DNA of 64,000 nucleotides from an uncultured Alphaproteobacteria bacterium (lineage in GTDB: Bacteria > Pseudomonadota > Alphaproteobacteria > HIMB59 > GCA-002718135). Shown here one piece after another: positions 4,860 through 59,692 of this stretch (positions are counted from its first letter, which is position 1; each line of letters opens with the position of its first letter). Under the pieces are notes generated by a model, which saw nothing but the letters and a program-made list of their open reading frames with translations, did no database searches and had not been told where the DNA came from. The position numbers were made by a program, and so were the translations under genes. The stretch lies in NCBI GenBank assembly GCA_902618015.1, contig CACMYX010000001.1, forward strand, positions 252,028-316,027, written 5' to 3'.

Positions 4860-4890
4860 TTAATTATCTTATAATTATTTAATTAAGCTA

Positions 4891-5757: not shown

Positions 5758-5788
5758 ATATTAATATACGCTTAATAACTAAATTGGA

Positions 5789-6601: not shown

Positions 6602-6605
6602 AATA

Positions 6606-7109
6606 TTATTTTTTACTCAATATTTGTTCTATTTTTTCAGTTGATTGAAAATAATCAGTTTTTTCAACTGCTGCAACTTCTCTAGCTAAACGTTCAATAG
6701 CAACTTGAAACATTTGCCTTTCACTATACGATTGTTCTGCTTGACTACTTTTTCTATACAAGTCTCTCACAACTTCTGCAATTTTTATAGGATCGCCTGA
6801 AAAAATTTTAGTTTCGTATTCTTGAGCTCTTCTACTCCACATAATTCTTCTTATTTTTGGTTTTAATTTCAAAGTAGAAAAAACTTCTTCTATTATCTTT
6901 TTTGAAGAAATTTTTCTTAAGCCTACCTCTTCTCTTTTATCAAGAGGAACTCTTATTGTTAACTTAGATTGTTCCATTTTAACAACATAAAAATTAGTTT
7001 TAATATTAGAAATTTCCATATTTTCTATTTTAATAATTTCTCCTACTCCATGTTTAGGATAAACCACTATTTCACCTATTTTAAATTCAACATTTTTTTT
7101 TGTTTTCAT
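6606..7109 (-). CDS. CarD/CdnL family RNA-polymerase-binding transcription regulator
   Basis: N-terminal FKIGEIVVYPKHGVGEI Tudor-like RNAP-interaction domain. 167 aa. Confidence 0.9.
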   Translation of the reverse strand: MKTKKNVEFKIGEIVVYPKHGVGEIIKIENMEISNIKTNFYVVKMEQSKLTIRVPLDKREEVGLRKISSKKIIEEVFSTLKLKPKIRRIMWSRRAQEYETKIFSGDPIKIAEVVRDLYRKSSQAEQSYSERQMFQVAIERLAREVAAVEKTDYFQSTEKIEQILSKK

Positions 7110-7442
7110 CTATTTTCCTGGTTTATCACTAAAATGATTAATAAATTTGTCATCTACATTTTGCCATTTATCAGCATCAGATGGAGGGGTTTTTTTCTCA
7201 CTGATATTAGGCCAAATTTCGGAGTATTTTCTATTAATTTCAGCCCATTTTTCTATACCATCTTCCGTATCAGGTAAAATTGCTTCAACAGGACATTCGG
7301 GTTCACAAACTCCACAGTCAATACATTCATCAGGGTGTATGACTAACATATTTTCACCTTCATAAAAACAATCAACAGGGCAAACCTCAACACAATCCAT
7401 ATGTTTACATTTTATACATTTTTCATCAACTACGTATGTCAT
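7110..7442 (-). CDS. fdxA: 7Fe ferredoxin (3Fe-4S + 4Fe-4S)
   Basis: CxxCxxxxCxxxCP and CxxCxxCxxxCP cysteine clusters ([37 protein letters not shown]). Abuts the CarD-family gene with no spacer. Confidence 0.9.
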
Positions 7443-7443
7443 A

Positions 7444-7893
7444 TTATTTAGAATTTTTATCTAGAGCTCTTTTTCTTGCATTTCCAGAGTTCACATCAGA
7501 AATATATAGTAATCCAGCTAGTCTCCTTATAAAATTTGACTCGTAATCGTGAACGTCTCCATCAGATAAAACAATTTCCCAAAGTGCTTCTATAAGCAAA
7601 AGTTTTTTTGCATCTGAAAAATTTTTATTAATAAATGAAGTGTAATGATAAAGAGAATTTGAGTTATTTTTATTTTTCAATGCCTGGGTCAAAACTAATT
7701 CAACTTCATTGGGATCCTCAGCAAAAGTATTGAGCAAGCTTGATTTAATTTTATTTGTTTCAATTTCATCTATTTGTCCGTCAGTGTAGGCAGCCTCAAT
7801 CATTAATCCACAAAGTAATTCGAGATTCTTGTTTTCTTCTATGTCTTTAGTAGAATTTTGATTATTTAAAATATTTTTTAATAAATTTATCAA
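7444..7893 (-). CDS. TerB-like / DjlA N-terminal-domain family protein
   Basis: 149 aa acidic helical protein with paired D..E metal-site-like repeats ([12 protein letters not shown] ; [11 protein letters not shown]), typical of the TerB fold. Confidence 0.5.
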
Positions 7894-7914
7894 TTTTTAC
7901 CTATGTATTTACTA

Positions 7915-10461: not shown

Positions 10462-10462
10462 G

Positions 10463-45754: not shown

Positions 45755-46348
45755 ATGAACAAACCTAATCTTCTTTTCCCTACGCCTGTTTGGACTTCTC
45801 AAATAGATGACTATAAAAAATTAAATGAAACTATGTATACTTATATAAAAGAAGCTCAAACTAAAGATCAAAAAGGTATTAATAAAAGTAATATAAAAGG
45901 CTGGCATTCAAAAGACTTTGATTTGAAAGATAAAGAACCTAAAAACTTTATTAATTGTATTTCACCTTCCATTAAAAAAGTAATGATAGATATGAATTGG
46001 GAAAACGAAAGACAAACTATTAAGATTAGTAATATGTGGGCTATTATAAACATTGGGGGATCAACAAACACAAGACACCAACACGGTAATAGTACAATTA
46101 GTGGTGCATATTATGTAAAAGCTCCAAAAAATTGTGGTGATATTATATTTTATGATCCAAGACCTGCTCCTGTATTCTATTACCCAACTGCGACAAGTTC
46201 AAATTTTTTGAATGCTCAAGTTAATGGAATTACGCCCAAAGAAGGTGCCTTAATTTTATTTCCTAGTTATGTAGATCATTCAGTTAATGAAAATTTATCT
46301 AATAACGAAAGAATAGTTATAAGCTTTAATATTACTATTCAAGTGTGA
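45755..46348 (+). CDS. 2OG-Fe(II) oxygenase-like protein (TIGR02466-type)
   Basis: LLFPTPVW N-terminus, H.HGNSTISGAYYV and LFPSYVDHSV motifs. Confidence 0.65.
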   Translation: MNKPNLLFPTPVWTSQIDDYKKLNETMYTYIKEAQTKDQKGINKSNIKGWHSKDFDLKDKEPKNFINCISPSIKKVMIDMNWENERQTIKISNMWAIINIGGSTNTRHQHGNSTISGAYYVKAPKNCGDIIFYDPRPAPVFYYPTATSSNFLNAQVNGITPKEGALILFPSYVDHSVNENLSNNERIVISFNITIQV

Positions 46349-46363
46349 ATAAAATAAAATATA

Positions 46364-47125
46364 CTAAATAATATTTTTTGAGAGATTTTCCCAAGCTTCA
46401 CCAGTTTCAATTTCTTTGAGTGTCCACTGTCCATAAGCAAGATTATTAAATATGTTATAATTTATAATAGGTCTTTCGATGTCCTGAATTTTACCAATAT
46501 GGTTTAGATTGTTATCTGTAAAATATGATGGGACTCCATTTAACATTGCCATGAAACCAGCAGTAGATTGTAGACTTACAAATGCCCAAGCATTTTTTAA
46601 CAATATTGTAAGTGGTTCCTTTGCAAACTTATTATGAATAATGAGTTTTCTATCTGTATATTTTTTTAATAATTTAATTGTATCATCGGTCCAGCTAGGT
46701 ACATTATAAACTTTTTTCATAGTTTCTGATGGTTCTGATAAAATAATATAATCTCCAGATTTTTTTTGATCAAGAATTTTAAGATTTAAATTCTTTAATC
46801 TGTCACTCGGGTAATTACCTTCACCATTATGAACAAAATTATTATACACTATTCTAAAATAACCATCTAAATTAATAATACTAGTACGATTATTTTCAAA
46901 AGATCTTTTTGATTGGTTAAAATACCCATGATCCATATAGTAATAATTTTTAACTTTTTTTATAATATCAAGAGTTCCTCTTAAGACACCATAAGTTGCA
47001 ATTGTTTTGTCATATTCTCTAAATTTATTAACATGACATAAAAGTGAATCTGAACCTTTGGCAAAATTATAACATAGAGTTTTATTAACTATATGATCCG
47101 TATAAATAACAATAGGTTTATTCAT
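46364..47125 (-). CDS. hypothetical protein (possible GT-B-like transferase)
   Basis: 253 aa with no confident motif. The C-terminal ..VSLQSTAGFMAMLNGVP.. weakly resembles a nucleotide-sugar-binding loop. Confidence 0.3.
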   Translation of the reverse strand: MNKPIVIYTDHIVNKTLCYNFAKGSDSLLCHVNKFREYDKTIATYGVLRGTLDIIKKVKNYYYMDHGYFNQSKRSFENNRTSIINLDGYFRIVYNNFVHNGEGNYPSDRLKNLNLKILDQKKSGDYIILSEPSETMKKVYNVPSWTDDTIKLLKKYTDRKLIIHNKFAKEPLTILLKNAWAFVSLQSTAGFMAMLNGVPSYFTDNNLNHIGKIQDIERPIINYNIFNNLAYGQWTLKEIETGEAWENLSKNII

Positions 47126-47206
47126 TTAATAGTATTATAAACTAATAAGTCACTTTATAAATATAATCATTTCTGTTATTTATATTTAAAATATATTTTT
47201 ATTAAT

Positions 47207-47968
47207 ATGTATAGTGTTTTACAAAATAGAAAAAATATCAAATTTAGATTTGAAAAATTTCCTTACTTAATTATTGATGATGCCTTACCTAATGAATTAT
47301 ATGAAAAATTAAGTAACACTTTCCCAAAATATGAAAAAATTATTGGAAATAATGAGTATAAGGAGAATTTTGCGTATAGATATAACGCATTCAATTCGCT
47401 AAGAGACAGTGAGATAGATTCTGAATGGAGAGAATTCATAAAATTTCACACCAGCTATGAATTTTTAGAAGAATTTTATAATGTTTTTGGCGATGCAATA
47501 AAAAAAATTTACAAAGTAGAAAAAGAAAGATTATTTACAAAAGATAATATTGGAGTTCGTTTCGAAAAAAATAATTATTTAAATCTTGATTGTCAGTTTG
47601 TTATAAATACACCCACAAGTGGGGAAACTAAAGTAATTGAACCACACTTAGATAACCCTGTAGAATTATATGCAGCTTTATTATATATGAAGGATTCTGA
47701 TGATAACTCTGAAGGAGGAAATCTTACTACTCATACTTTTAAAGATAAACCCAGTTTTTATGGTAAATCAAGAGTAAGAGAAGATAAAATAAATTTAATT
47801 GAAGAAATAGAATACAAAAGAAATAGATTAGTTATGTTTTTAAATTCTCCATATTCTATTCATGGAGTAACAAAAAGGTCCAAAACTAATTTTTATAGAA
47901 AATATATAAATATAATTGGAGATTATAATTTTGAGTTATTTAATTATAGGAATTTTTTAGAAGAGTAA
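47207..47968 (+). CDS. 2OG-Fe(II) oxygenase-like protein
   Basis: HxD...H arrangement (EPHLDNP ... SIHGV) with beta-rich spacing. 253 aa. Confidence 0.45.
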   Translation: MYSVLQNRKNIKFRFEKFPYLIIDDALPNELYEKLSNTFPKYEKIIGNNEYKENFAYRYNAFNSLRDSEIDSEWREFIKFHTSYEFLEEFYNVFGDAIKKIYKVEKERLFTKDNIGVRFEKNNYLNLDCQFVINTPTSGETKVIEPHLDNPVELYAALLYMKDSDDNSEGGNLTTHTFKDKPSFYGKSRVREDKINLIEEIEYKRNRLVMFLNSPYSIHGVTKRSKTNFYRKYINIIGDYNFELFNYRNFLEE

Positions 47969-47975
47969 GATCAAT

Positions 47976-48821
47976 TTATTTTCTTTTATTGTTATCTGAA
48001 ATCTGATTTGCTGCATCTGCACTTCCACCTTCTTGGGAGCTGTATTCTGTTTTATAGCTTGCTACATCACTTAAGTATTTGCCCTGAAGAGGTATCTTAA
48101 AATTAACATTTTGTAATTTTCTTGTTGCAACAACAAGAAGAATATTTTTTCCTATTTTTTCTTTTGCAATTTCAATCATTTTTGCAAATTTAGAATTATT
48201 TCTATGTGGTTTAATTTGCTCAAATAGTATTGAAAAGTCATCTCCATCTAGTTTAAGTTCAGCCCCATCTCTATTTGCAAGAGATATTTTTATAATTTCA
48301 TATTTGTTTGAAGCAGCTAAATCACCAAAGAAAATTGGATTAAAATTGTAAAATCCATGGTTTATCCAGTCAATAAAAGGAAGTATATTAAGCATTATTC
48401 CATTAACTTTTGTTAAATTATGAAAATTTAAAAATAAAGAAAATTGATTAAAAACATGTTCACCAGTGCCATTATTAATGACAAGATCATACTTTTGATT
48501 AAAATTATATGTTTCTAAAATATTTTTATTTAAATCAAATTGATAACTGTCATAAGCACCATTTAAATCTATAGATTTGTATTCATTAAACCCAATAGAT
48601 ATAAAATAATCCTTAGTTGTAAAACTTTTTTTACTAGATAATTTTTCTAAACTTTCTTTTTGATTAACAGTTAAGGGTTTGTTTTGATTGATTAAATTTT
48701 TGATAAAAATATTATTTATAGAAGAGGTTTGAGATCCTAAATCAATTGCACTAGCATTTTTAGTAGGAATAATATTCCTACATTCCAAAACATTTAACGC
48801 TGCAACAGGATTGAAAGTCAT
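47976..48821 (-). CDS. SAM-dependent methyltransferase-like protein
   Basis: Motif I-like AIDLGSQ and YDLVINNGTGEHV pattern. 281 aa. Confidence 0.45.
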   Translation of the reverse strand: MTFNPVAALNVLECRNIIPTKNASAIDLGSQTSSINNIFIKNLINQNKPLTVNQKESLEKLSSKKSFTTKDYFISIGFNEYKSIDLNGAYDSYQFDLNKNILETYNFNQKYDLVINNGTGEHVFNQFSLFLNFHNLTKVNGIMLNILPFIDWINHGFYNFNPIFFGDLAASNKYEIIKISLANRDGAELKLDGDDFSILFEQIKPHRNNSKFAKMIEIAKEKIGKNILLVVATRKLQNVNFKIPLQGKYLSDVASYKTEYSSQEGGSADAANQISDNNKRK

Positions 48822-48895
48822 AATATTTAATTTTTGTAATATTTATTATTTAGATTAATATCTATAATTAATTTGGTATATTATAGTAAATAGAG

Positions 48896-49471
48896 ATGAG
48901 TAAATATTCAGATAATTATTATGAAATTATTGAAAAATATAAGTTGTTTCATAAAAATGGGATTAAAAATCAACCAGGAATTAGTACTTTTTTAGGATAT
49001 TCTCTCACAAAATGGATTGTTAGAATAAAAGACATAATTAAGACAAATAATTGTCAATCTTTAATTGATTTTGGATGTGGTAAAGCTTTTTTATATAATA
49101 ATAATTTTAAAATTAAGGATGAGGAATTTTCAGGTTTATCTGATTTTTGGAAAATAAATAATATTTATCTATATGATCCAGGTGTAGAAAAATATTCAAA
49201 ATTTCCTCAGATTAAATATGATGGTTTAATTTGTACTGATGTTGTTGAGCATATACCTGAAGATGATGTAATTAATTTTATAGATGGTCTATTTAAATTA
49301 TCTAATAAATTTATATTTGTTGTAATAGCGACTATTCCAGCCACAAAATTCTTTGATGATGGTTCTAATATTCACCTTAGTTTAAAAAACGAAAGTGTTT
49401 GGAAAGATATCTTTGAAAGTTTCAAAAAAAAATATCCTGAAGTTAATCAATATATATATTTTAATGATTAA
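48896..49471 (+). CDS. class I SAM-dependent methyltransferase (paralogue of 19995-20654)
   Basis: IDFGCGKA, LYDPGVEKYSKF, LICTDVVEHIPEDD and SNKFIF are collinear with IDYGCGKG, LYDPCYEKYSKF, LICIDVLEHIPEDD and SNKFIF in the core copy. Confidence 0.65.
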   Translation: MSKYSDNYYEIIEKYKLFHKNGIKNQPGISTFLGYSLTKWIVRIKDIIKTNNCQSLIDFGCGKAFLYNNNFKIKDEEFSGLSDFWKINNIYLYDPGVEKYSKFPQIKYDGLICTDVVEHIPEDDVINFIDGLFKLSNKFIFVVIATIPATKFFDDGSNIHLSLKNESVWKDIFESFKKKYPEVNQYIYFND

Positions 49472-49521
49472 TGTGTTTAAAATAAAAATTTAAAATAATG
49501 TGGATTTGCAAAAAAACTTAA

Positions 49522-51279
49522 ATGTGTGGTATATTTGGAATAACTGAAAAAAATGAAAGTTTAATAAAAAATTTAATAAACAGGTGTAATCATAGAGGTC
49601 CTGACGCTAGTTCAATTTGGTCAAATCAGCATCTTACCCTAGGTCATAATCTTCTATCTATTACCTCTAAGGTACAAGATGGTATTCAGCCGTATGTAAC
49701 ACAAAAAGGAAATATTCTAACATACAACGGTGAGATATTTAATTATGATGATCTCTTAAAAAAATTTAAAAATAAATTTATTCCTAAAACATCATGTGAC
49801 ACAGAGCTACTAGGTTGGTTATTGGACAATTATAATTATTATGATGTAATATGTAATACAATCGATAGCATGCATTCTTTTGTTTTTTTTAATAAAAAAA
49901 ATAATGAAATTGTTTTGTCAAGAGATCATGCAGGCATCAAACCGATGTATTTTACTGAAATAAAAAACGGTATAGTATTTTCCTCTGAAATTAAGTGTTT
50001 ATTAGATATAGCAGTTAATTCTAAAAAAATAGATAGGCTTGCATTAGCATGTACGTGCTTACTTGGTGTGAATGTTTTGAGACAAACATTGTTTAATGGT
50101 ATCTATAAAGTACTTCCAGGTGAAACTATAATATATGATTTATATAAAAAAAAAGTAAAATCTACGTTCAGAAATCTAGTAAAGCCAAATTCAAGAATAA
50201 ACTTTAATGCTGAAGAATTTTATGAAAGATCAATGTTGGCGATTAATAACTCTACGCTTGGCAAAAGAAATTTTGGAATATTTTTATCAGGGGGGCTAGA
50301 TTCATCTTTAATTGCACTTGGTTTAAAAAATAAATTAGGATCACTGAATTCTTTTACAACAATAATGGAACCAAACATACTTGGTAAGGAAGATTATAAT
50401 AGTGATGCTAAAATTGCTAAGCAATTTGCAAAAGACATTAATTTAAATCATAAGGAAATTAAGATAACTCCCAAAACATTTATTGAAAATTGGAATGACT
50501 CTATAAAATTTATTGAAGAGCCAAGGTATAATTGGTGCTTACCAATGTATTATTTTACAAATAAAGTTTTATCTCAAAACAATACTGTTGTTACAATGGC
50601 CGGTGATGTAGGTGATGAAATTTTTGGTGGGTATAGTAAATATTTAAAAATGTTTCATTTAGAAACTAAACCACAAAACTGGGGTGACTTCATTAAAATG
50701 TGGATGAAAAAATTTAGGGCACCTGTTTTACTTAATATGAATTTTAATTATGAAGACTTACACTCTGTTTTAATTAAATCTCTGCCAGAAGAAATATGGA
50801 ATCCTGAAGATATTTCTAACTCTGCAATGGCACTTGATTGTATAACTACTGTTTCTGAAGATTTTTTTTCGAGAAATGATAGATTTGGTATGGCATTTTC
50901 TATGGAAGGAAGGTTTCCTCTATCATCAAAAGAATTCATGAACTATTGCTTAGACATTAAATCTGCATATAAATTTGGCTTAGATTTAAAAGAAACTAAA
51001 TATGTTGTTAAGAATGCATATATGAACAAACTTCCTAAATACATTTTAAACAAATCAAAAACAGGTTGGTCAGCGCCAATAATGGAATGGTTGAAGACTG
51101 ATAAAACTTTAAAAAATAAGTTTGATAATGACATTGGTAGAGATGATGGAATTAAAAAAATAATAATGAAAGAAAACTTTTTGTATAATTCGAATCTTGG
51201 AGATGAATTATCTGGCAAAAGAAAGATTATTTCATGGATGCTAAGATCTTGGTCTCAGGAATTTGACATGTTTTTATAG
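49522..51279 (+). CDS. asparagine synthase (glutamine-hydrolysing)-like amidotransferase
   Basis: MCGI N-terminal nucleophile (Ntn GATase) and SGGLDSS PP-loop. 585 aa. The glycan-cluster context suggests a sugar amidotransferase rather than housekeeping AsnB. Confidence 0.8.
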   Translation: MCGIFGITEKNESLIKNLINRCNHRGPDASSIWSNQHLTLGHNLLSITSKVQDGIQPYVTQKGNILTYNGEIFNYDDLLKKFKNKFIPKTSCDTELLGWLLDNYNYYDVICNTIDSMHSFVFFNKKNNEIVLSRDHAGIKPMYFTEIKNGIVFSSEIKCLLDIAVNSKKIDRLALACTCLLGVNVLRQTLFNGIYKVLPGETIIYDLYKKKVKSTFRNLVKPNSRINFNAEEFYERSMLAINNSTLGKRNFGIFLSGGLDSSLIALGLKNKLGSLNSFTTIMEPNILGKEDYNSDAKIAKQFAKDINLNHKEIKITPKTFIENWNDSIKFIEEPRYNWCLPMYYFTNKVLSQNNTVVTMAGDVGDEIFGGYSKYLKMFHLETKPQNWGDFIKMWMKKFRAPVLLNMNFNYEDLHSVLIKSLPEEIWNPEDISNSAMALDCITTVSEDFFSRNDRFGMAFSMEGRFPLSSKEFMNYCLDIKSAYKFGLDLKETKYVVKNAYMNKLPKYILNKSKTGWSAPIMEWLKTDKTLKNKFDNDIGRDDGIKKIIMKENFLYNSNLGDELSGKRKIISWMLRSWSQEFDMFL

Positions 51280-51322
51280 AGAGAAATTAATAATAAGATA
51301 AATTGAAAAAATTAAATCATAA

Positions 51323-52234
51323 ATGTTTAATATAGGCCTGTCACTATTTACACCATCTCCATGGAATGATCGTATTAGGGATGTCATGTTCAATGCATTA
51401 AATGAAAACGATAAGGTTCATTGTGAGAAAATAAACAATTATCCAGAAAAAAAATTTGATATTTTAATTCTTTGTGGGATCAGGGTTATTTCGAAAAAAA
51501 AATTAGATATTAATCGTCTCAGGCAGAATGCTAAGATTTTAATTGAAATAGGTGATGATGGTATAGATCCTGCAAGGACTTTCGAAGATTACTATTTTTA
51601 TTTTATTCCAACCAATGAACCTCGCTTTGAGCACTACATATATTTACCAAAATTTGTAGATGAAAATTATTTATACCCAGAGCAAACAAATAGAATATCA
51701 GTTTTTGTTGATCATTATAAAAATCAAACAGAACCTGAGAGACAAATTTCAATTAGATCGCTTTTATATATTTTTGAAAATTTAAAAAAATTTAGAGATA
51801 GAATTGATGTATATTTTCACTCGTCTAACGGAATTGAGTTAAATCCTAATGAAATTACAATACCGAGAGATAAAAAAAGTAATTTTAAATTTCTTGAATA
51901 TGCTGAAATAACAAAGTTTTATAGAAGATGTCACATTTTTTTTCCAACCCACAGAGAAACCCAAGGTATGTTAGCACAAGAAATAGGAGCTTGTGGTGGA
52001 TTAACTATTATGCAAGAATGGATGTATCCATTTGAAACGCATCACCAATTCGAACATTTAATATATAATTTTGAAAAATTTGTTGATTTTGAAGCAGTAT
52101 TGGAAAATTGCTTAAAGAAAGAATTTATAAACAAAAATAGAAATAGAGTAATTAAACATTGCTCAATTTCTGTATTTAATAAGATTTTTAATTTTGAAAT
52201 AAATCGAATTCTCAAAAATCATTTTAAAATTTAA
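51323..52234 (+). CDS. hypothetical protein, possible GT4-like glycosyltransferase C-terminal domain
   Basis: FFPTHRETQGMLAQEIGACGGLTI resembles the E..G....EA.A.G.P loop of GT-B enzymes. Confidence 0.35.
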   Translation: MFNIGLSLFTPSPWNDRIRDVMFNALNENDKVHCEKINNYPEKKFDILILCGIRVISKKKLDINRLRQNAKILIEIGDDGIDPARTFEDYYFYFIPTNEPRFEHYIYLPKFVDENYLYPEQTNRISVFVDHYKNQTEPERQISIRSLLYIFENLKKFRDRIDVYFHSSNGIELNPNEITIPRDKKSNFKFLEYAEITKFYRRCHIFFPTHRETQGMLAQEIGACGGLTIMQEWMYPFETHHQFEHLIYNFEKFVDFEAVLENCLKKEFINKNRNRVIKHCSISVFNKIFNFEINRILKNHFKI

Positions 52235-53351
52235 TAACATTCTTTTTAAAATAAACATAGATTCTATTTAGAAAATATCCTGAACATATAATCATAAAAG
52301 GATATAATGGTAACACGAATCTTGCATCAGGATCTAAAAAAGATACTAAAGAAGCTAAGAAATTAAAACATACATAAATTAATAAAAAATTAAAAAAATA
52401 ATCACTCCATAATTTTTTATAAATTCTATATAAAATTTCATAGATAGTTGGAATTAACATTAATGGAATAGTTATATATAGAAATAAATTATGTAAAAAA
52501 GAATACCCAGGTCTCACTCCAAATATATATAAAAAAAATTTTTTTGACATATATTCTATTGTATAAAGTGGATTAGATATCATTACTTTTAGTAAAGCAA
52601 ATAAATTTTTTATTTCGGTTTCAGAATTTATGCCATCAATTCCATATTCGTAATTTCCCCATATAAATTTTCCTGAGACATAGGAAAGTGTAATATAGTT
52701 TATTATCCAACTTGATAAATAATTCAAAATAAAAATGAATATTAATAATAAAATAATTAAAATTAAGTAAAAATATTTTTTTTTATAAGAAGTAAAAGTC
52801 AAATGAAAAAAATAAATGATACAGGTAAAAAATAAAAAAACTGAATGTGCTCTAATTAAAGAAGAAAATATAATTAAAATTATAACTAGTGGCATATATT
52901 TTTTTTTTGCGAATACTAATAGAAATAAAGAAATTATTGATAAATGAACATTTAAAGAGTCAGTAAGTAAATAAAAATCCCAAAATAAAAGAGGTGGATA
53001 AAAAAGATATGATGCTGCGATAAGAATACATATTATCGTATCGAAATTTTTGTAGTGAAAATAAAAATATAAACAACATGCGGCTATAGAATGAACACAG
53101 AATTGAATAAAATAAATTAAATTTACTGATATACCTATCTCTTTAATTAAAAAAATTATTAGAACATATGAAGATGAACAAAAGGCTTTTAAATTTGTAA
53201 ATAATTCATTTAAATTGTTAGAGTAACGGATATATCTCTGAGAATCTGAGCCAACTTTGTAACCATATGTTTCACCAATAAAATAAACAATTACATAAAA
53301 TATTATTAATAAAAAAATTAAATAAATAGATTTGAAATGTTTAGTTATCAA
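52224..53351 (-). CDS. polytopic membrane protein (GT-C / O-antigen polymerase-like)
   Basis: 375 aa with about 10 or more hydrophobic segments. ATGA-type overlap with the upstream GT2 gene. Confidence 0.5.
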   Translation of the reverse strand: MITKHFKSIYLIFLLIIFYVIVYFIGETYGYKVGSDSQRYIRYSNNLNELFTNLKAFCSSSYVLIIFLIKEIGISVNLIYFIQFCVHSIAACCLYFYFHYKNFDTIICILIAASYLFYPPLLFWDFYLLTDSLNVHLSIISLFLLVFAKKKYMPLVIILIIFSSLIRAHSVFLFFTCIIYFFHLTFTSYKKKYFYLILIILLLIFIFILNYLSSWIINYITLSYVSGKFIWGNYEYGIDGINSETEIKNLFALLKVMISNPLYTIEYMSKKFFLYIFGVRPGYSFLHNLFLYITIPLMLIPTIYEILYRIYKKLWSDYFFNFLLIYVCFNFLASLVSFLDPDARFVLPLYPFMIICSGYFLNRIYVYFKKNVIKF

Positions 53352-54043
53352 ACTTTATAAAATCTCCATTTTATTATTGAAATTAAAGCCTTAAAAAAAT
53401 CTATCCACTTAACTTTTTTTCCATCTGTTTTTTTTCTTGGATAGTACTCGACAGGTATTTCAATAACGTCTTTAGCTAATCTTGCTAATTTCCCACAAAT
53501 TTCATTTTCAATATCGAACGCGTTAGATTTTAATTTAAGGTCTTGTAATGTGTTTTTTTTAAATGCTTTAACACCAGTTTCTACATCAGAATAATTCTTA
53601 TTGAATAAAATATTAGTAAACATAGTCAATATTACATTAGCAATATAAAAAATTAATCCATGTGTTGGTTTATACTTTATATTTATGAATCTACTTGCAA
53701 ATACAGTATCTGGATTAAATTTATCAAAACATTCTAAAATATCTGGAATAACATTAACGTTGTATTCTAGATCTGAGTCAAAGAATATAATAATCTCACC
53801 GGTAGCAATTTTTATACATTCTTTCAGATTGCCGCCCTTACCTTTATTGTAATTATTGAAGTTTATTTTTAATTTATCAGATTTATAATTTTCTAATATT
53901 TCCTTTGTTCCATCATCTGAAGCATTATCTGAAACTACTATTTCATAATCTTGGTTCAGTTCTTCTAATTGACTAATACAATTATCTAGAGTCTTAGATA
54001 TATATTTTTTTTCATTAAATACTGGGATTAGTAACGATATCAT
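53348..54043 (-). CDS. family 2 glycosyltransferase (polyprenol-phosphate glycosyltransferase-like)
   Basis: SLLIPVFNE start, VVSDNASDDGT, and DSD (DxD) in IIFFDSDLEY. 231 aa. Confidence 0.8.
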   Translation of the reverse strand: MISLLIPVFNEKKYISKTLDNCISQLEELNQDYEIVVSDNASDDGTKEILENYKSDKLKINFNNYNKGKGGNLKECIKIATGEIIIFFDSDLEYNVNVIPDILECFDKFNPDTVFASRFINIKYKPTHGLIFYIANVILTMFTNILFNKNYSDVETGVKAFKKNTLQDLKLKSNAFDIENEICGKLARLAKDVIEIPVEYYPRKKTDGKKVKWIDFFKALISIIKWRFYKV

Positions 54044-54794
54044 TTAAATAAATTTTTTCTAAATTATTTATAGTATAAATAAATTCTTTTGAGAAATATA
54101 CATTTTCATTCTTCTTTGTAATTAAATTAACAATTGCTCTATTTGATATTAATTTTTTTTTAACAACTATTCTTCTACTTGAGTGGTTATTGGTTGATAT
54201 TATATTTTTTATTTTTCTGAACAAAAAATATATTGGCGTATAATTTCTCATAGAATTTAAATTGTCTATGATTAATTTTTTATTTTGAATATAACTAAAC
54301 ATATATTTGTGAATAAAATTTATATCCTCAAATTTATTATTTTTTGAAAGTACGCCAAATATATTCCCTAAATATATTATTGAAGATTTTTGATATTTTT
54401 TTAAAAATATGTTGTCTACTTTATTGTAAAATTTGGCATAATTCGAAACTTCATTATTAACAGCATGTATTGTTGAGAGTTTATAAATCCAAATATTTTT
54501 TGTTTTTACAATATTAAATACTTGATTTAAATATTTTGTGTATCTTCTATATGAGTTATCGAAATTATTTTGACATTGCGATCTGTTTGGACCATACAAA
54601 AAGAATAGTGTTGTAATATTATTATTATCATTAATAATTTTTTTTAAATTTTCTATGTCTGTAAATATAAAACAATCATTATTAAAAAATTCTTTTATGC
54701 AACTATAGATATATCCATTATTACCTAGAAAAACTGTTTTATATTTTTTGGTGTTTCTTAAATTCATTTTTATCGTGATAATAATTTTGAGCAC
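54015..54794 (-). CDS. hypothetical protein, possibly a divergent SDR-type sugar reductase
   Basis: VFLGNNGYIYSCI resembles a degenerate Rossmann GxxGxxG. Position after the dehydratase and cupin genes fits a 4-reductase. An alternative ATG at 54767 is possible. Extremely N/K/I-rich. Confidence 0.3.
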   Translation of the reverse strand: MLKIIITIKMNLRNTKKYKTVFLGNNGYIYSCIKEFFNNDCFIFTDIENLKKIINDNNNITTLFFLYGPNRSQCQNNFDNSYRRYTKYLNQVFNIVKTKNIWIYKLSTIHAVNNEVSNYAKFYNKVDNIFLKKYQKSSIIYLGNIFGVLSKNNKFEDINFIHKYMFSYIQNKKLIIDNLNSMRNYTPIYFLFRKIKNIISTNNHSSRRIVVKKKLISNRAIVNLITKKNENVYFSKEFIYTINNLEKIYLNDIVTNPSI

Positions 54795-55122
54795 ATAATA
54801 ATAAGTTTTTCTGATTTTTTTTTACTAGAATTTTAAACCATGTTTTTGAATTTATAATTAATAAATGTTTATTTTTTGTATTAATATTAAGTTTAGTATA
54901 TTTTTTATTATAGAATAACGTGAAAAAAAAATTTCCTTGTAGAGGAAAAAAGAGAACTTTATTTTTTTTATGATAAATCCAATTTTTTTCTTTTTTAACA
55001 TTATTCAAATAAAGCTCTTTTATTTGAAAATTTTTTATTTTTTTATTTATAATTTTATAAATTTCAGTCTTATCATTTTTTACAGTCTCAATTTTAATTA
55101 TTTTAAATTTATTACTAGCCAA
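54739..55122 (-). CDS. small cupin-like protein (sugar 3,5-epimerase / ketoisomerase-like)
   Basis: 127 aa. IKELY.. / F.PLQG.F / W.. / LLLCAQNYYHDKNEF spacing resembles FdtA/WxcM/RmlC-type cupins. Low confidence. Confidence 0.3.
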   Translation of the reverse strand: MASNKFKIIKIETVKNDKTEIYKIINKKIKNFQIKELYLNNVKKEKNWIYHKKNKVLFFPLQGNFFFTLFYNKKYTKLNINTKNKHLLIINSKTWFKILVKKNQKNLLLCAQNYYHDKNEFKKHQKI

Positions 55123-56149
55123 AGTATTCCTCTATTTGAGAAATGGAAATTAAATCTGTCTTATTTTTATTTCTATAATAATTTTTATACCAATCAACAG
55201 TTACATTTACTGACTTATCAAACTTATACTTAACCTTCCATTTAAGATATTTATATGCTTTATTTGCGTTAAGTTGCAGCAGTTTATCTTCTTTTATTTT
55301 ATTTTTAATAAATTTGATATTCCCTGTACCCCAATATTCAACAATTTTCTCTGCTAAAATTTCAACTGTTTTATTATTATCTACATTTGGTCCAAAGTTC
55401 CAACTACCACTTATTTTTTTATCTTTATAAAGATACATATTTAACAATAGGTAACCGTTAATTACATCTAAAACATGTTGCCATGGTCTTGTTGCATAAC
55501 GATTCCTAATCTTAATTGATTTTTTTTTATTTAATGCGCTAACACAATCTGGCACAATTCTATATTTTGAAAAATCGTTTCCACCAATGACATTTCCTGC
55601 CCTTGCAGTAGCAACCTTCATATTGAAAGATTCTCTGTATGCATTAATCATGATTTCTGTACAAGCTTTGGATGCACTGTAAGGATCTTTTCCACCTAAA
55701 ATATCTCCTTCTTTATATCCTCTAGACAAAGACATATTCTCATATGCTTTATCTGATGTAATAAAAAGAGATGTTGTATTGCTATTTATATTTTTTAAAG
55801 ACTCTAATAGTTTTAATGAAATATTAAAGTTTGTTTTAAATGTATTGTATGGAGAATGATATGATAGAGGTAAATTTGATTGGGCGGCAAGATGAAATAT
55901 TAAATCAGGTTTAAATTCTCTCAATATTTTTTTAATATTAACAAGATTTAAATCTCTATAAGATTGCCTAAAGTGTTTATTTTTTTTTAAATTTAAAAAA
56001 TTATATTTATTGTATACTTTATCACTGATACCATAAACTTTAGCACCAAAAAATATCAAAGATTGAGTTAGCCAATATCCCTTAAAGCCACTATGCCCAG
56101 AAATAAATATTTTTTTATTTTTATAAAAATTTTTTAAAACAGTTTCCAA
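55115..56149 (-). CDS. rfbG: CDP-glucose 4,6-dehydratase
   Basis: FISGHSGFKGYWL Rossmann motif and YSASKACTE catalytic YxxxK. 344 aa. Follows the cytidylyltransferase gene. Confidence 0.85.
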   Translation of the reverse strand: METVLKNFYKNKKIFISGHSGFKGYWLTQSLIFFGAKVYGISDKVYNKYNFLNLKKNKHFRQSYRDLNLVNIKKILREFKPDLIFHLAAQSNLPLSYHSPYNTFKTNFNISLKLLESLKNINSNTTSLFITSDKAYENMSLSRGYKEGDILGGKDPYSASKACTEIMINAYRESFNMKVATARAGNVIGGNDFSKYRIVPDCVSALNKKKSIKIRNRYATRPWQHVLDVINGYLLLNMYLYKDKKISGSWNFGPNVDNNKTVEILAEKIVEYWGTGNIKFIKNKIKEDKLLQLNANKAYKYLKWKVKYKFDKSVNVTVDWYKNYYRNKNKTDLISISQIEEYFG

Positions 56150-56889
56150 AAAATTTTTCCTTTTTTAAAGATTTCATTAATAATTTTGTAGTCTCTTGGA
56201 TTATCAACACAAAACCATTTTTTTTTATGAATAAAAGTAACTACTTGTTTTTTCTTTACTAGTTTTTTAATTGGTTTTTGTTCAAAAGTACAATCTTTAT
56301 TATTATCTAAATAACTAAATATTTTTTGGTTACAAACAAAAAATCCTCCTGATATCCAACCTTCATCAGTTTGTAACTTTTCATTAAATTTTCTTACATA
56401 ATGTTTATCGTCAAACTGAATATGACCAAACCTAGCTGGAGGTTTAACAGATGTAATAGTGAGCAGCTTTTTTTTCTTAATATGATAATTTTTTAATTCA
56501 TTCATATTTATATTAGATAATCCATCTCCATAAGTAAGAAAAAAATTCTCATTTTTTTTAATATACTTTTCCAAAGATTTTAGTCTAAATCCAGTATTAG
56601 AATGTTTCCCAGAATTAATAATCTTAATATTTAGTTTTCTAATTAGTATTTTAGTTTTGCTATCAATATTTGGATTTCTAAATTTATTTATATTATTAAA
56701 ATAATTTCTGATTTTGTCTATTTTATAACCAGCTAGTAAATAAAATTCTGTATAACCAAAACTTGCGTAATGTAAAATTATATGTAAGAGAATTGGCATT
56801 GGTCCAATTTTTAACATGGGCTTCGGAAGATCTGTATTGATAGAACTAATTCTTTCTCCTAATCCGCCACAAAAAATTACAACTTTCAT
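56134..56889 (-). CDS. rfbF: glucose-1-phosphate cytidylyltransferase
   Basis: MKVVIFCGGLGERIS...KPMLKIGPMPIL.HI matches the RfbF N-terminus. 251 aa. Confidence 0.85.
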   Translation of the reverse strand: MKVVIFCGGLGERISSINTDLPKPMLKIGPMPILLHIILHYASFGYTEFYLLAGYKIDKIRNYFNNINKFRNPNIDSKTKILIRKLNIKIINSGKHSNTGFRLKSLEKYIKKNENFFLTYGDGLSNINMNELKNYHIKKKKLLTITSVKPPARFGHIQFDDKHYVRKFNEKLQTDEGWISGGFFVCNQKIFSYLDNNKDCTFEQKPIKKLVKKKQVVTFIHKKKWFCVDNPRDYKIINEIFKKGKIFWKLF

Positions 56890-56991
56890 TTAATAGCTCA
56901 GATAATAAATTTAAAATATAAATAAAACTAAAAAACTGTATTGTAAATTCACTTCAAATGGAATTTAAAAATTAAAAATGGGATTTGGTTT

Positions 56992-57042
56992 TGGAGCGGG
57001 CGAAGGGATTCGAACCCTCGACTTCAACCTTGGCAAGGTTGC
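56992..57042 (-). repeat. tRNA-Gly(GCC) 3' fragment, att-like copy 1 (51 nt, anticodon arm to CCA)
   Basis: Read as identical to 58105-58155 and 59618-59668 (tggagcgggcgaagggattcgaaccctcgacttcaaccttggcaaggttgc). Lacks the D-arm and 5' acceptor strand. Confidence 0.9.
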
Positions 57043-57130
57043 CGAGTACGAATTACCTTAACCTTTTCTTAAGTTTTAAATAACATAACTTAATGTTTTG
57101 TAAACCAAGTGTCCCGCTACTGTCCCGCAA

Positions 57131-57187
57131 AGAGAGATGGCTGAGCGGTTGAAAGCACCGGTCTTGAAAACCGGCAATGGGGCAACT
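57131..57187 (+). pseudogene. tRNA-Ser(UGA) 5' fragment (acceptor 5' strand, D-arm, anticodon arm; no T-arm)
   Basis: AGAGAGA-TG-GCTGAGCGGTTGAAAGC-A-CCGGTCTTGAAAACCGG.. closely matches bacterial tRNA-Ser(UGA) through the anticodon arm (to ~57175), after which the similarity ends. Confidence 0.75.
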
Positions 57188-57207
57188 CTTTTTTATCTTA
57201 TATAATT

Positions 57208-58008
57208 TTAATAACCATAGCCCAATGGGGGCATTTTACCGTGGTCCATCATGTATTGAAATGTCTTCATTTGTTTTTGTGTATTTTCAAATTTTTGAAG
57301 TCTTAATTGTTTTTCCATAATTCTATTTTGTTCATTCATTGCGCTAACCATTGCGCTATTATCCACTGTTGTTGTTGATGCACCTTGATTTTCTTGGAGC
57401 ATTAATTGAAGAATACAATTTGACATATCTTCAGTTTCGTTTGCAAAACCAATATTTAAACAAACTTCTCTTTTGGTGTTTATTGAAACCAAAAGTGCTT
57501 CTTGTCTTTTGTCTTGCTCTTCTTTCATTTTAGCAATTCTTTTTTCTTCTTTTATTTTTTTAATATTTGACTCAACTTTTGGACACACTACTTTTCCCTT
57601 GTTATATCCTCTACCACCCCAAAATCCTTCTTTAAATACCTTAATATCGGAATCAAATTTAACTTCAGCGTCCTCACAAATATCTTTTGAGATTGTACTC
57701 ATAAAACTTGATACTGGGCTTTGTGTTTTGTAACTATTATAAAGATAAAATGCTACACTCTTACAGTTATCTTCATTGAAGTAACCACTTGAGTCAAGGT
57801 CAAAACATAACTCTTCGTAAAATGTTGCATTAATTTTATTACTTTGATCAGTAATTGTAATATATTCTGAGACGTATCCCCATCCATCATCATATTTAGT
57901 TTTTACAAATTCAACATTAGAAGTTTTACCACTTTGTGTTGTGTAAGTTGTGGTTGCACAATTAGCTAAAAAAAGAGTCAGTAACAATATGGATATTTTT
58001 TTAACCAT
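57208..58008 (-). CDS. predicted lipoprotein of unknown function
   Basis: Signal peptide ending LFLANC (lipobox-like). Cys-containing N-terminal half and coiled-coil-prone K/E/Q-rich C-terminal half. Confidence 0.6.
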   Translation of the reverse strand: MVKKISILLLTLFLANCATTTYTTQSGKTSNVEFVKTKYDDGWGYVSEYITITDQSNKINATFYEELCFDLDSSGYFNEDNCKSVAFYLYNSYKTQSPVSSFMSTISKDICEDAEVKFDSDIKVFKEGFWGGRGYNKGKVVCPKVESNIKKIKEEKRIAKMKEEQDKRQEALLVSINTKREVCLNIGFANETEDMSNCILQLMLQENQGASTTTVDNSAMVSAMNEQNRIMEKQLRLQKFENTQKQMKTFQYMMDHGKMPPLGYGY

Positions 58009-58104
58009 ACTAATTATTTACCATCTAAAAGAAAAAAAATAAACTTGAACTGTCCCGTAAGTGTCCCACTACTTTTCAAGTTATTTAAATTTTGGGAGAA
58101 TTAC

Positions 58105-58155
58105 TGGAGCGGGCGAAGGGATTCGAACCCTCGACTTCAACCTTGGCAAGGTTGC
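58105..58155 (-). repeat. tRNA-Gly(GCC) 3' fragment, att-like copy 2
   Basis: Same 51-mer. Copies 1 and 2 also share the next 2 nt (cg), which differ from the intact tRNA. Confidence 0.9.
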
Positions 58156-59617
58156 CGTGCACAATTGAGATCGGCCTTTTCTTAGAAAAACTATATCCTA
58201 TTTTATCTCTTAATGAAATATGAGTTGGTGCGTGAGTGCTGCGTAAAGTTGATAGAAAAATAAAAAATTTAATCGATTTACAAAATATTTTTACTTAAGT
58301 TTTGTAAATCTTCTTACTACAATAAGGAAAGTAGAAAATATCAAAATCCATAAAAAAGAAATAGCTATTACATTAAAGTGTATACTGTAAATTTCTGATG
58401 TGTATCCAATCATAGCAGGGCCTAATAGAAAACCTAAGAAGCCTAATGTGATCAAATTAGCTGAAGCTGTATTTACATTTTCAGTGGTCGATTTTAAAGC
58501 TAATCTAACAATTATAGGTACAAAATTGGCTGTAGCAACTCCCAAGATAAATAAACCTACCAAGATAAAATAATAATTACCAATCAAAACAATGATAAGA
58601 TAAATAATAGATCCAAATAAAGGTAAGTAACAACCAATTACTCTTTCATTGAATTTTTCAATCAAAGTAGCACCAAGAAATTTAGATATTGTTTCACCAC
58701 TAAACCAACATACAATTGTTAAACTAGCAATTAAGCTAGTTGTGAATAATTCTTTCTCAAACCACAGTGGTGCCCAATCAACAATAGCGGTTACAGTTGC
58801 AAAAAAAACAAATAAATACAGACTGTAAATTAATAGTTTATTTTCGGGGAATTTAAATTTTTTAGTTGTTTCAATTTCATCATATTGTTTTTTTAATCCA
58901 AGGCTAAAGACAAATATACTCGAAATTAATCCAAAAAAAATAAGTATAAAGAATAACACGTAAGAGTTTAATTCTAAAAATCTATATAATCCTGAACACA
59001 AACCACCACATAAAATACCAAGACTAAAAAAAGCGCTATAATATGTTTGCAGGATTTTATTTGTTTTATTTTCTGCCACACTTGTTACAGCAGTGGCAGT
59101 GGTGTTTATTATACCAAAACCTATTCCCGCAGGAACTGAGGCAAATAAAAAAAAAGTTATACTATTCGAAAAGACAAAGAATATAGGCGTGGAAGAAAAA
59201 ACTACTAAACCTATTACCAAAGAAATTCTTGATCCAAGATTAGGAATAATAAATCTTCCTGATAATTGAGAAAAAAATAATTGAACTAATGAGAAAATCA
59301 TGAACAAGTATCCTAGAGTAGAATTATTCATATGTAATTTCTGAAAAATCCAAGGAATATGAGATAGTGTATTACCCCAAATAAATAGTGGAACAAAAAC
59401 CGCGATCGAGGCAGAGAAAAAACTATTTAAATAAATTTTTTTATCCACTTAATAAGACTATATTTTTCTATAAGATTTTAAATACTGAAAGTTACTAACA
59501 AAACTTGATTACAATTAATATTAATTTTAAATTTAGTTTTAATTAAATTAAAAAAAATTTAATTTGTTTATGATTTGGTAATTATTTGGTGCGTTTAAGT
59601 CTAAATAGCATTTTTCT
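58156..59617 (-). mobile_element. att-bounded single-gene module 2 (integrase-less island cassette)
   Basis: 1,462 bp between att copy 2 and the intact tRNA-Gly. Holds one MFS gene. GGTGCGT-type motifs sit near both ends. Confidence 0.5.
58291..59448 (-). CDS. major facilitator superfamily transporter
   Basis: 385 aa with about 12 TM segments. MFS-like loop G.L.GRF..P.LGSR between TM2 and TM3. Confidence 0.75.
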   Translation of the reverse strand: MDKKIYLNSFFSASIAVFVPLFIWGNTLSHIPWIFQKLHMNNSTLGYLFMIFSLVQLFFSQLSGRFIIPNLGSRISLVIGLVVFSSTPIFFVFSNSITFFLFASVPAGIGFGIINTTATAVTSVAENKTNKILQTYYSAFFSLGILCGGLCSGLYRFLELNSYVLFFILIFFGLISSIFVFSLGLKKQYDEIETTKKFKFPENKLLIYSLYLFVFFATVTAIVDWAPLWFEKELFTTSLIASLTIVCWFSGETISKFLGATLIEKFNERVIGCYLPLFGSIIYLIIVLIGNYYFILVGLFILGVATANFVPIIVRLALKSTTENVNTASANLITLGFLGFLLGPAMIGYTSEIYSIHFNVIAISFLWILIFSTFLIVVRRFTKLK

Positions 59618-59692
59618 TGGAGCGGGCGAAGGGATTCGAACCCTCGACTTCAACCTTGGCAAGGTTGCGCTCTACCCCTGAGCTACGCCCGC
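59618..59692 (-). tRNA. tRNA-Gly (anticodon GCC), CCA encoded
   Basis: The reverse complement GCGGGCG-TA-GCTC-AGGGGTA-GAGC-G-CAACC-TTGCCAA-GGTTG-AAGTC-GAGGG-TTCGAAT-CCCTT-CGCCCGC-T-CCA folds as a canonical cloverleaf. Confidence 0.93.

Follow-up and report, generated by a model that had tools for sequence, protein, structure and literature searches.

Integrase-less single-gene modules at a probable tRNA-Gly(GCC) integration hotspot of SAR11

Introduction

By what route do single genes enter and leave a SAR11 genome? No bacterial group in the ocean is more abundant than SAR11; descriptions long gave it hardly any mobile elements, yet it has an open pangenome. The question is raised by a stretch of 64,000 nucleotides, hereafter the window (assembly GCA_902618015.1, contig CACMYX010000001.1, positions 252,028 to 316,027 of the forward strand), in which three direct copies of the 3′ part of a tRNA-Gly(GCC) gene enclose two short modules that carry no integrase. 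An earlier note on this DNA had interpreted the array as the tandem footprint of site-specific integration into a tRNA gene, with a recombinase acting from elsewhere. The analysis reported here indicates that the locus is probably an integration hotspot at the SAR11 tRNA-Gly(GCC) gene, and that the two modules of the window are likely to be non-autonomous, cargo-only members of a family of integrase elements.

The tRNA-Gly Repeats and the Modules Between Them

The exact 51-mer TGGAGCGGGCGAAGGGATTCGAACCCTCGACTTCAACCTTGGCAAGGTTGC was found three times in a scan of the window, each time on the forward strand and with no mismatches (56992-57042, 58105-58155 and 59618-59668); no copy is expected by chance (100 shuffles). 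The sole intact tRNA-Gly(GCC) is a gene of 75 nt at 59618..59692 on the reverse strand (ARAGORN; Rfam tRNA model, 70.9 bits). Repeat copy 3 (59618-59668, reverse strand) is the 3′ 51 nt of this gene and forms the tRNA-proximal junction of the array. The copies at 58105 and 56992 score under the tRNA threshold. Copy 2 (58105..58155, reverse strand) is a 51-nt fragment of the tRNA-Gly 3′ end, read as the att scar between modules 2 and 1, and copy 1 (56992..57042, reverse strand) is read as the distal scar, which would hold the displaced 3′ part of the original tRNA. Copies 1 and 2 diverge from the tRNA at one common base, and the next two bases are CG in both. ARAGORN and Rfam thus agree with the earlier note on three exact copies, one intact tRNA and two fragments, and the shared point of divergence with its two further nucleotides is as that note described it.

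Perfect 51-mers flank both enclosed segments on both sides. As had been noted, these segments measure 1,062 and 1,462 bp, and their genes, for a lipoprotein and a transporter, lie on the tRNA strand. Module 1 (57043..58104, reverse strand) carries a gene for a lipoprotein-like protein of 266 aa (57208..58008, reverse strand) with an N-terminal signal peptide and cysteine and no match to a Pfam or other family; the identical protein was found on 13 contigs. Module 2 (58156..59617, reverse strand) carries a gene for a major facilitator superfamily (MFS) transporter of 385 aa (58291..59448, reverse strand; Pfam MFS_1, 1.6e-22). An exact-protein look-up of the MFS protein returned the source genome only, and an 86%-identical MFS gene sits deeper in the island of L003. 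The claim that each module holds exactly one gene is accurate for long open reading frames (ORFs), of which each has one, but module 1 also contains a tRNA-Ser remnant (see below).

Variation at the Locus Among Relatives

Relatives were collected with the Blh protein, which yielded 68 single-cell genomes of SAR11 type, of which one is titled Pelagibacteraceae; the comparison covered the 67 loci that contain the tRNA. In these 67, blh and the tRNA-Gly that follows it are constant, as in the window, and the sequence downstream is variable. Fragments of tRNA-Gly of the anticodon type (42-54 nt) are absent from 27 loci, occur once in 29, twice in eight, three times in two and four times in one. 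Successive repeats enclose modules of ~0.5 to 7.5 kb, with edges exactly at the repeat. Empty sites were found in L012, L006 and L049, where the intact tRNA is directly joined to the chromosomal flank that follows copy 1 in the window (56945..56991). Presence and absence among genomes therefore fall exactly at the repeat, as for an integrative element. Module number and content vary precisely at the 51-mer boundaries when the locus is aligned across relatives, which bears out the proposed footprint of tandem, site-specific integration into the 3′ part of the tRNA.

The same cassettes occupy different array positions among the single-cell genomes. Recurring ones hold an ORF of 86 aa (~507/~529 bp), a sulfotransferase (~1,235/~1,269 bp), a trio of flavodoxin-like, ABM and alternative-oxidase genes, a restriction-modification pair of 3.1 kb, or an exonuclease with a McrB-N/NOV_C protein. 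Distal tRNA fragments are often eroded, as would be expected if new inserts enter at the tRNA and displace older ones outward. The modules of the window also have differing neighbors in metagenomes. In contig L110, module 2 (95% identity) lies directly on the chromosomal flank, without module 1. Module 1, which has an identity of 99.15-100% in Tara contigs, stands behind the intact tRNA in L196 and L197, a "...catg" arm in L191, L194 and L195, an L060-type arm in L192 and the MFS module in L193; in L191 it precedes a flank unlike that of the window.

Chimeras arise easily in single-cell assemblies, short-read assemblies break at repeats, and this repeat is where many metagenome contigs stop. 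An artefact of single-cell assembly or amplification, or else a segmental duplication of the chromosome that includes the tRNA end, could in principle produce such an array. This explanation is scarcely credible here, since the junctions are reproduced by independent Tara metagenome contigs (L192, L193 and L110), of which L193 covers the MFS arm, the repeat and the lipoprotein module and L192 contains the complete module 1 between two repeats. The same architecture recurs in dozens of independent single-cell genomes. The repeat is of att length only, and beyond it lies related arm sequence, not duplicated chromosome. The doubt about repeat collapse or duplication that the earlier note had raised is answered by these contigs and by the length of the repeats.

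Defence genes are frequent cargo in the relatives, as seen in loci L022 and L039 (3,107-bp modules), L018, L026 and L056. One such cargo consists of an N6-methylase-like protein of 605 aa, identified by eye, and its partner of 332 aa; another is the exonuclease (RNase_T) with the McrB-N/NOV_C protein (Pfam). The restriction-modification pair is 99.6% identical between two single-cell genomes whose flanks are 92% identical.

The Integrase Family and Its Free Forms

A tyrosine recombinase family (protein cluster c12; Phage_integrase, 5.9e-17, with a weak match of residues 31-51 to Arm-DNA-bind_4) is associated with the site in relatives. Full-length members (314-339 aa) lie directly beside the tRNA or a fragment in five single-cell genomes (L048, L060, L068, L033 and L064), and remnants were found in nine. 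A scan of metagenomes for the fragment-type att site returned at least 120 contigs, and in many of these a full-length integrase immediately follows the 51-nt fragment. In L119, L152 and L188, the fragment stands between the two arms, right and left, of a single element and so forms an attP junction. L119 has a terminal redundancy of 253 bp (252/253), giving a circle of ~5.79 kb with one att that encodes the integrase, an 895-aa DUF5906/primase-like protein and helix-turn-helix (HTH) proteins (HTH_17/HTH_38); L132.1 is the integrated form of an L119-type element. L109 is a circle of ~6.73 kb. A 51%-identical integrase, P0054, occurs on dozens of contigs, including head-to-tail concatemers with a period of 7,339 bp (L202-L205); the att of these is a 72-nt tRNA-Gly fragment of the same class as the 72-73-nt repeats in L033, L047 and L058. 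Excised circular or attP forms are thus seen for the integrase-bearing relatives L119, L109, L152, L188 and L202-L205. The proposal of a recombinase residing elsewhere gains from this, as a cognate tyrosine integrase is present at the same site in relatives and on circular and concatemeric attP forms.

A recombinase beside the same 51-mer was found in single-cell relatives and metagenome contigs, but not in GenBank phages or IMG/VR, phages and viromes being among the places where the earlier note had proposed to look. No GenBank pelagiphage matched the 51-mer or the region, and only phage tRNA-Gly genes were matched. In IMG/VR, the exact 51-mer had one match, beside an intact tRNA in a high-GC alphaproteobacterial prophage and irrelevant here; two fragment-specific patterns gave no match, and no close relative of the integrase was found, with a single match at 27% identity. 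The nearest phage integrases are 33-37% identical (podophages of Ralstonia and Burkholderia), and the family is abundant in marine metagenomes. In L199, a SAR11-type contig of 71 kb with other upstream synteny, an intact tRNA-Gly is followed by the related integrase P0063 and then by a ribose-type ATP-binding cassette (ABC) transporter, a 2-hydroxyacid dehydrogenase and RbsD (4839-10600), which constitutes a cargo-carrying autonomous element.

Neither window module has an integrase of its own, while at the same site L048, L060, L068, L033, L064, L119 and L151 do. The window as a whole is blank for integrases, both with a profile of the locus family and in tblastn searches with family members, as the earlier note had stated. 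That note had offered two alternatives, an integron-like cassette array and a set of extremely reduced, tycheposon-like islands, and the second fits better. A true integron-like system would have a dedicated chromosomal recombinase that inserts promoterless cassettes at a tRNA-derived site under a common promoter. The small single-gene units, the constant bounding site, the varying cassette order among genomes and the orientation of both window cargo genes, which point the same way as the tRNA, would all suit it. It is nonetheless very improbable: the 64 kb hold no tyrosine recombinase, the integrases found belong to the elements and are carried within circles and concatemers, the site consists of the tRNA 3′ part in direct repeat rather than a folded attC, and among relatives some cassettes lie on the tRNA strand (c8) and others on the opposite one (c10 and c23-24-35).

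Arm Repeats and Proposed Integrase Specificity

Every element at the site, with or without an integrase, has paired direct 7-8-mers at a spacing of 11 bp in both arms. In the left arm one pair is found at a depth of ~25-65 nt; in the right arm its motif returns, usually as two copies, at ~70-95 nt. Motifs vary from element to element (GGGACA, CGTCTCC, ATCGACA, ATCGGCA, TGTCCAA, GTAGCC, GTTGCCC, TCCGACA, ACGCTCC, GTCCCAC, GCAGTAG and others). The right arm of a module repeats the motif of its own left arm in 19 of 31 motif classes; for the right arms of other modules the figure is 33 of 930 comparisons. Integrases of elements with the same motif are 96-99% identical over their N-terminal 70 aa, whereas those of elements with different motifs are 62-84% identical there and 79-99% identical in the catalytic part (92-99% in the L060-like group). 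Because the motif co-varies with the N-terminal domain of the integrase, the 11-bp-spaced repeats are probably arm-type integrase sites, and the classes can be read as distinct specificities.

Both window modules have matched motifs in both arms, complete in module 1 and with one of four sites degenerate in module 2. Module 1 belongs to the GGGACA class. Its left-arm repeats (58050..58068) are CTGTCCCG (58050-58057) and GTGTCCCA (58061-58068), reverse complements of GGGACA that lie 11 bp apart, and its right-arm repeats (57109..57127) are GTGTCCCG (57109-57116) and CTGTCCCG (57120-57127). Both arms correspond to the attP arms of L151, an integrase-bearing contig, and they also match the integrase-less L045.1, L003.1 and L021.1, whose cargo differs. 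What follows the left-arm repeats is the integrase start codon in L151 and the lipoprotein gene in module 1.

Module 2 is of the ACGCNCC class. Its right-arm repeats (58227..58244) are GGTGCGT (58227-58233) and GCTGCGT (58238-58244), 11 bp apart; in its left arm (59577..59594), GGTGCGT (59588-59594) is intact and its partner 11 bp off, GGTAATT (59577-59583), is degenerate. For comparison, the left arm of L014.1 has ACGCTCC and ACGATCC, and that of L181 has ACGCACC twice. The right arm (58156-58195) matches the integrase-bearing L060.1 and the integrase-remnant elements L014.1, L031.1 and L038.1, and the left arm is alignable with the arm of L014 type, which stands ahead of a truncated integrase. 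The boundary between the GGGACA and ACGCNCC arms falls exactly at repeat copy 2.

Close to the core, right arms end in GTACWYG just before the 51-mer, mimicking the GTAGAGC of the tRNA at the same place. A conserved box, CCTTTTCTT on the forward strand (= AAGAAAAGG), lies 20 nt from the repeat in module 1 (57062..57070) and in module 2 (58175-58183). These boxes and the GTACWYG ends are probably core-type and accessory-protein sites. The AAGAAAAGG box stands at the same distance of 20 nt from the 51-mer in many right arms that otherwise differ.

Insertion, Spread and Decay

In the mechanism we favor, a family of small elements would carry an attP made of the tRNA from anticodon stem through CCA (51 nt), with element-specific arms around it. 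A tyrosine integrase would recombine the tRNA gene with this attP; the probable place of the crossover is the anticodon loop, flanked by the inverted repeat of the anticodon stem. The exchange would rebuild the tRNA from the chromosomal 5′ part and the 3′ part of the element, and would leave the displaced 51-nt 3′ part on the far side. Repeated insertion at the rebuilt tRNA would push earlier inserts outward into a tandem array, from which modules may be lost by recombination between repeats; under this serial-insertion model module 2, being adjacent to the tRNA, would have been inserted last. We infer the crossover site, the serial insertion and the repeat-mediated loss because they are established for tyrosine integrases that target tRNA genes. 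The modules of the window would have lost the integrase and, where present, the primase/HTH core, and would have kept their att copies, core-proximal boxes and arm repeats. Such cargo-only modules could still be excised and inserted, in trans or in cis (accretion), where an autonomous element, resident in the cell or newly arrived, supplies the cognate integrase. If excised, module 1 would read ...TTTTGGGAGAATTAC + 51-mer + CGAGTACGAATTACC... across its circular junction, and module 2 would read ...AGCATTTTTCT + 51-mer + CGTGCACAATTGAG....

Decay and horizontal spread as integrase-less units are both visible at the locus. The first is seen in a series of elements with shared arms, from L119 (5.8 kb) through L132.1 (2.76 kb, with an integrase cut to 169 aa and other genes) to L075.1 (1.3 kb, sulfotransferase only) and L125.1. 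The 1.3-kb forms hold a sulfotransferase only, or two small lipoproteins, between a left end of ~70-190 bp and a right end of ~110-125 bp. With regard to spread, integrase-less cassettes are 96-99.6% identical in nucleotides over their whole length between single-cell genomes, non-coding arms included, while in the same genome pairs the adjacent core of 1.44 kb (blh and the 3′ end of crtY) is 83-94% identical. Since the cassettes are more alike than the core beside them, this identity argues that they spread horizontally as units without an integrase. Homologous recombination through the repeats and flanks is a possible vehicle.

The alternative that draws on the same evidence is that the modules are dead scars, immobile remnants with deleted integrases, and that all variation stems from homologous recombination and deletion through the 51-bp repeats, the tRNA/blh side and the island side. 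SAR11 is known for very high recombination. Integrases at the locus form a truncation series of 11-169 aa, and the eroded distal fragments would also be expected of remnants. Several further observations weigh against the hotspot reading as set out above and suit the dead scars. The module patterns of the window, L110 and L196/L197 can be derived from one ancestral array by deletion between 51-bp repeats alone. No circular or attP junction of any integrase-less module was seen among the at least 120 att-bearing metagenome contigs, and the integrase searches of the window were negative. The second left-arm site of module 2 is degenerate, and this module is perhaps no more than a dead remnant. 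In the ACGCTCC class, all nine integrases are truncated, at differing points (11-130 aa; L014, L018, L026, L029, L031, L033, L038, L043 and L047). In this class the first ~30 integrase residues and the left arms are well conserved, and the sampled single-cell genomes contain no full-length member.

Against the dead scars stand the excess identity of cassettes and arms over the adjacent core genes, the matched arm repeats that integrase-less cassettes of many classes keep on both sides, and module 1 itself, which is 99-100% identical behind at least four different upstream neighbors and before an unrelated flank. This weakens the alternative, which we regard as rather unlikely, although homologous recombination could still carry the spread. 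We accordingly retain, as the probable account, a hotspot at which the window modules are cargo-only members of the integrase family.

Whether these modules can move is a separate matter. The horizontal spread of cassettes and the arm classes held in common with autonomous elements point toward mobilization, if indirectly. For module 1, mobilization in trans is plausible, short of being probable. For module 2 it is less plausible, because one left-arm site has decayed and its integrase class is truncated in every sampled genome.

More tentatively, one might envisage a two-tier cassette economy at the SAR11 tRNA-Gly, with one core site (the anticodon arm) and a dozen or more orthogonal classes of arm code and integrase N-terminal domain. 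Each class would comprise autonomous integrase-primase elements, occurring as circles and concatemers, and parasitic cargo-only mini-cassettes of 0.5-1.5 kb that retain the code in both arms and are moved in trans. The relation of these cassettes to the autonomous elements would parallel that of miniature inverted-repeat transposable elements to transposons. With the arm code, an integrase could single out its own element although all cores in a tandem array are identical.

Other tRNA-Derived Sequences and the Surroundings of the Array

The tRNA-Ser remnant of module 1 is the 5′ part of a tRNA-Ser(UGA)-like sequence, from acceptor strand to variable arm (57131..57188, forward strand; ~58 nt; Rfam tRNA, 36.3 bits). 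It is truncated before the T arm and abuts the right-arm repeats. The same breakpoint is shared by L045.1 and L053.1, after which the cargo differs, and metagenome assemblies break or branch at this piece; it may be a second recombination site or a joint for cargo exchange. A tRNA-Ser(UGA)-like sequence adjoins the right-arm repeats in many cassettes (L025 12617-12706, L045 14902-14991, L051 12598-12687 and others). In sulfotransferase cassettes the copy is near-complete, ~90 nt, called by ARAGORN and with a poorly paired acceptor stem.

Two other kinds of tRNA-Gly repeat occur in relatives. One consists of the T arm and acceptor end only (23-33 nt), with a copy of the empty-site flank after each, and bounds arrays of small paralogous genes (clusters c27, c28, c32, c52 and c53); examples are found in L013 (13189-13220 and 15521-15543), L015 (13291-13899), L049 (11712-11742), L025 and L036. 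The other, a third att class, comprises 72-73 nt of the tRNA (L202-L205, ~4841-4912; L033, 17383-17455; L047, 13428-13499; L058, 12919-12990). In L047, in L058 and in the concatemers it begins with tRNA nucleotide 4, preceded by the right arm acggaaaaaataatcaac, and the right arm of L033 differs. This class includes integrase/primase/HTH elements of 7.3 kb that form head-to-tail concatemers and have the look of satellites of the VEIME type (virion-encapsidated integrative mobile elements). Rfam matches to HPnc0260, Plastid-ycf2 and mir-254 over the repeats were rejected as spurious, being far under threshold; the aligned 3′ end of HPnc0260 is a tRNA-like T-arm/acceptor segment, and the Plastid-ycf2 match overlies the tRNA gene itself.

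Around the array, GC content is ~18-34%. On one side lie blh, crtY, crtB and crtI, and on the other are sugar-nucleotide and glycosyltransferase genes. Between the array and the conserved core, at ~46000-56900, the window carries rfbF/rfbG-like, FdtA-like, glycosyltransferase family 2 and asparagine-synthase-like genes. The content of this part varies among single-cell genomes; it is a surface-polysaccharide island of the replacement type and directly adjoins the additive array. The idea that the window as such is one big hypervariable region was rejected, the bulk of it being core housekeeping genes.

Implications

The locus shows, at base-pair resolution, one route for single genes into and out of a SAR11 genome. 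Small integrase elements and their minimal cargo-only derivatives use tRNA-Gly as the landing site of this route. Among the genes carried are those for transporters, lipoproteins, sulfotransferases and an alternative oxidase, along with restriction and McrB-like defence genes. If the pairing of arm repeats with integrases holds as a code, it would account for the tandem coexistence of many related elements at one core site without mutual scrambling. It would also supply a simple sequence rule that predicts which integrase moves which cassette, and so help in reading marine metagenomes and the DNA of vesicle and virus fractions.

Comparison With Known Systems

The earlier note knew of no description of such an architecture, and this claim of novelty was overstated. 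Partial tRNA repeats in SAR11 islands (PMC11796062), elements with tyrosine recombinases near tRNAs in Pelagibacter (PMC11876622; PMC9618062) and tandem integrase-less ssrA islands (PMC3146451) have all been reported. What we did not find described is the reduction to single-gene units that keep complete arms, the recurrence of such units as a population of near-identical cassettes, and the many classes of arm repeat and integrase N-terminal domain on one shared core.

Tycheposons integrate at tRNAs, occur in tandem with a partial tRNA between neighbors, and leave behind broken integrases and isolated partial tRNAs (bioRxiv 10.1101/2020.12.28.424599); those of Prochlorococcus are reported to use seven target tRNAs. 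In Pelagibacter, tycheposon-like elements, VEIME satellites and 585 mobilized regions associated with tyrosine recombinases, often near tRNAs, are on record (PMC11876622; PMC9618062). Like the elements at our locus, tycheposons are small, with a terminal, inward-facing tyrosine recombinase, an optional primase/replication module, cargo, an island-associated tRNA and partial tRNA repeats. The likeness is one of architecture. The window shares with them the tandem arrangement, the partial tRNAs and the island-associated tRNA. In gene content its modules differ, as they hold cargo only, while L068.1 and L119 (integrase and DUF5906/primase) and L048.1, L060.1 and L199 (integrase and cargo) agree. 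The window array also differs in consisting solely of integrase-less single-gene units with complete arms, and possibly in its tRNA, Gly(GCC).

VEIMEs are marine phage satellites, small, integrase-bearing and concatenated head to tail, with AlpA/HTH and replication genes and Pelagibacter as main host (PMC9618062). Relatives at our att site resemble them as 7.3-kb concatemers (L202-L205) and circles of 5.8-6.7 kb; in IMG/VR neither their integrase nor their att has a close relative. The modules of the window, in contrast, have no VEIME gene and do not qualify as VEIMEs.

Cis-mobilizable elements (CIMEs) have lost their genes for integration and transfer, keep attL and attR, and stand in tandem with related autonomous elements at one site (PMC6323972; PMC5704250). 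The window modules likewise have no integration or transfer genes and retain attL and attR, which may be functional. CIMEs ride on integrative and conjugative elements in Firmicutes, whereas the partners here are integrase-primase elements of 5-7 kb that have no genes for conjugation, and the units, at 0.5-1.5 kb, are much smaller. In Dehalococcoides, whose genome is streamlined, ssrA islands lie in tandem downstream of a single-copy t(m)RNA gene with direct repeats of its 3′ end, and about half of them have no integration module; the authors proposed that these are cis-mobilizable (PMC3146451). That system differs from the window in its serine recombinase, its 20-bp repeat at the tmRNA T-loop and its multi-gene rdhA islands.

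Additive flexible islands also grow by cassette insertion beside a tRNA with recurring repeats of its 3′ end, as at tRNA-Lys, with 20-bp repeats, in "Ca. Methylopumilus" of the Methylophilaceae (PMC10872708). For SAR11, one sentence mentions partial tRNA repeats that mark cassette insertion in four islands, in a study that found no canonical mobile elements and only one integrase, in GI-35 (PMC11796062); its text does not specify which islands have these repeats. Unlike the present comparison, such reports give no integrase, arms or free forms. The "Pelagibacter, resolved" preprint treats a tRNA-anchored hypervariable region, HVR2 (Phe/His, Arg), not the tRNA-Gly locus.

The likeness to integrons is functional only, in the small, mostly single-gene units, the constant site and the variable order; intI, attI and Pc are absent, the array starting at a tRNA gene, there is no attC, and orientation is not uniform in relatives. 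The architecture is of a known kind, that of tycheposons and VEIMEs, of CIMEs and of the Dehalococcoides ssrA islands, seen here in an unusually minimal form.

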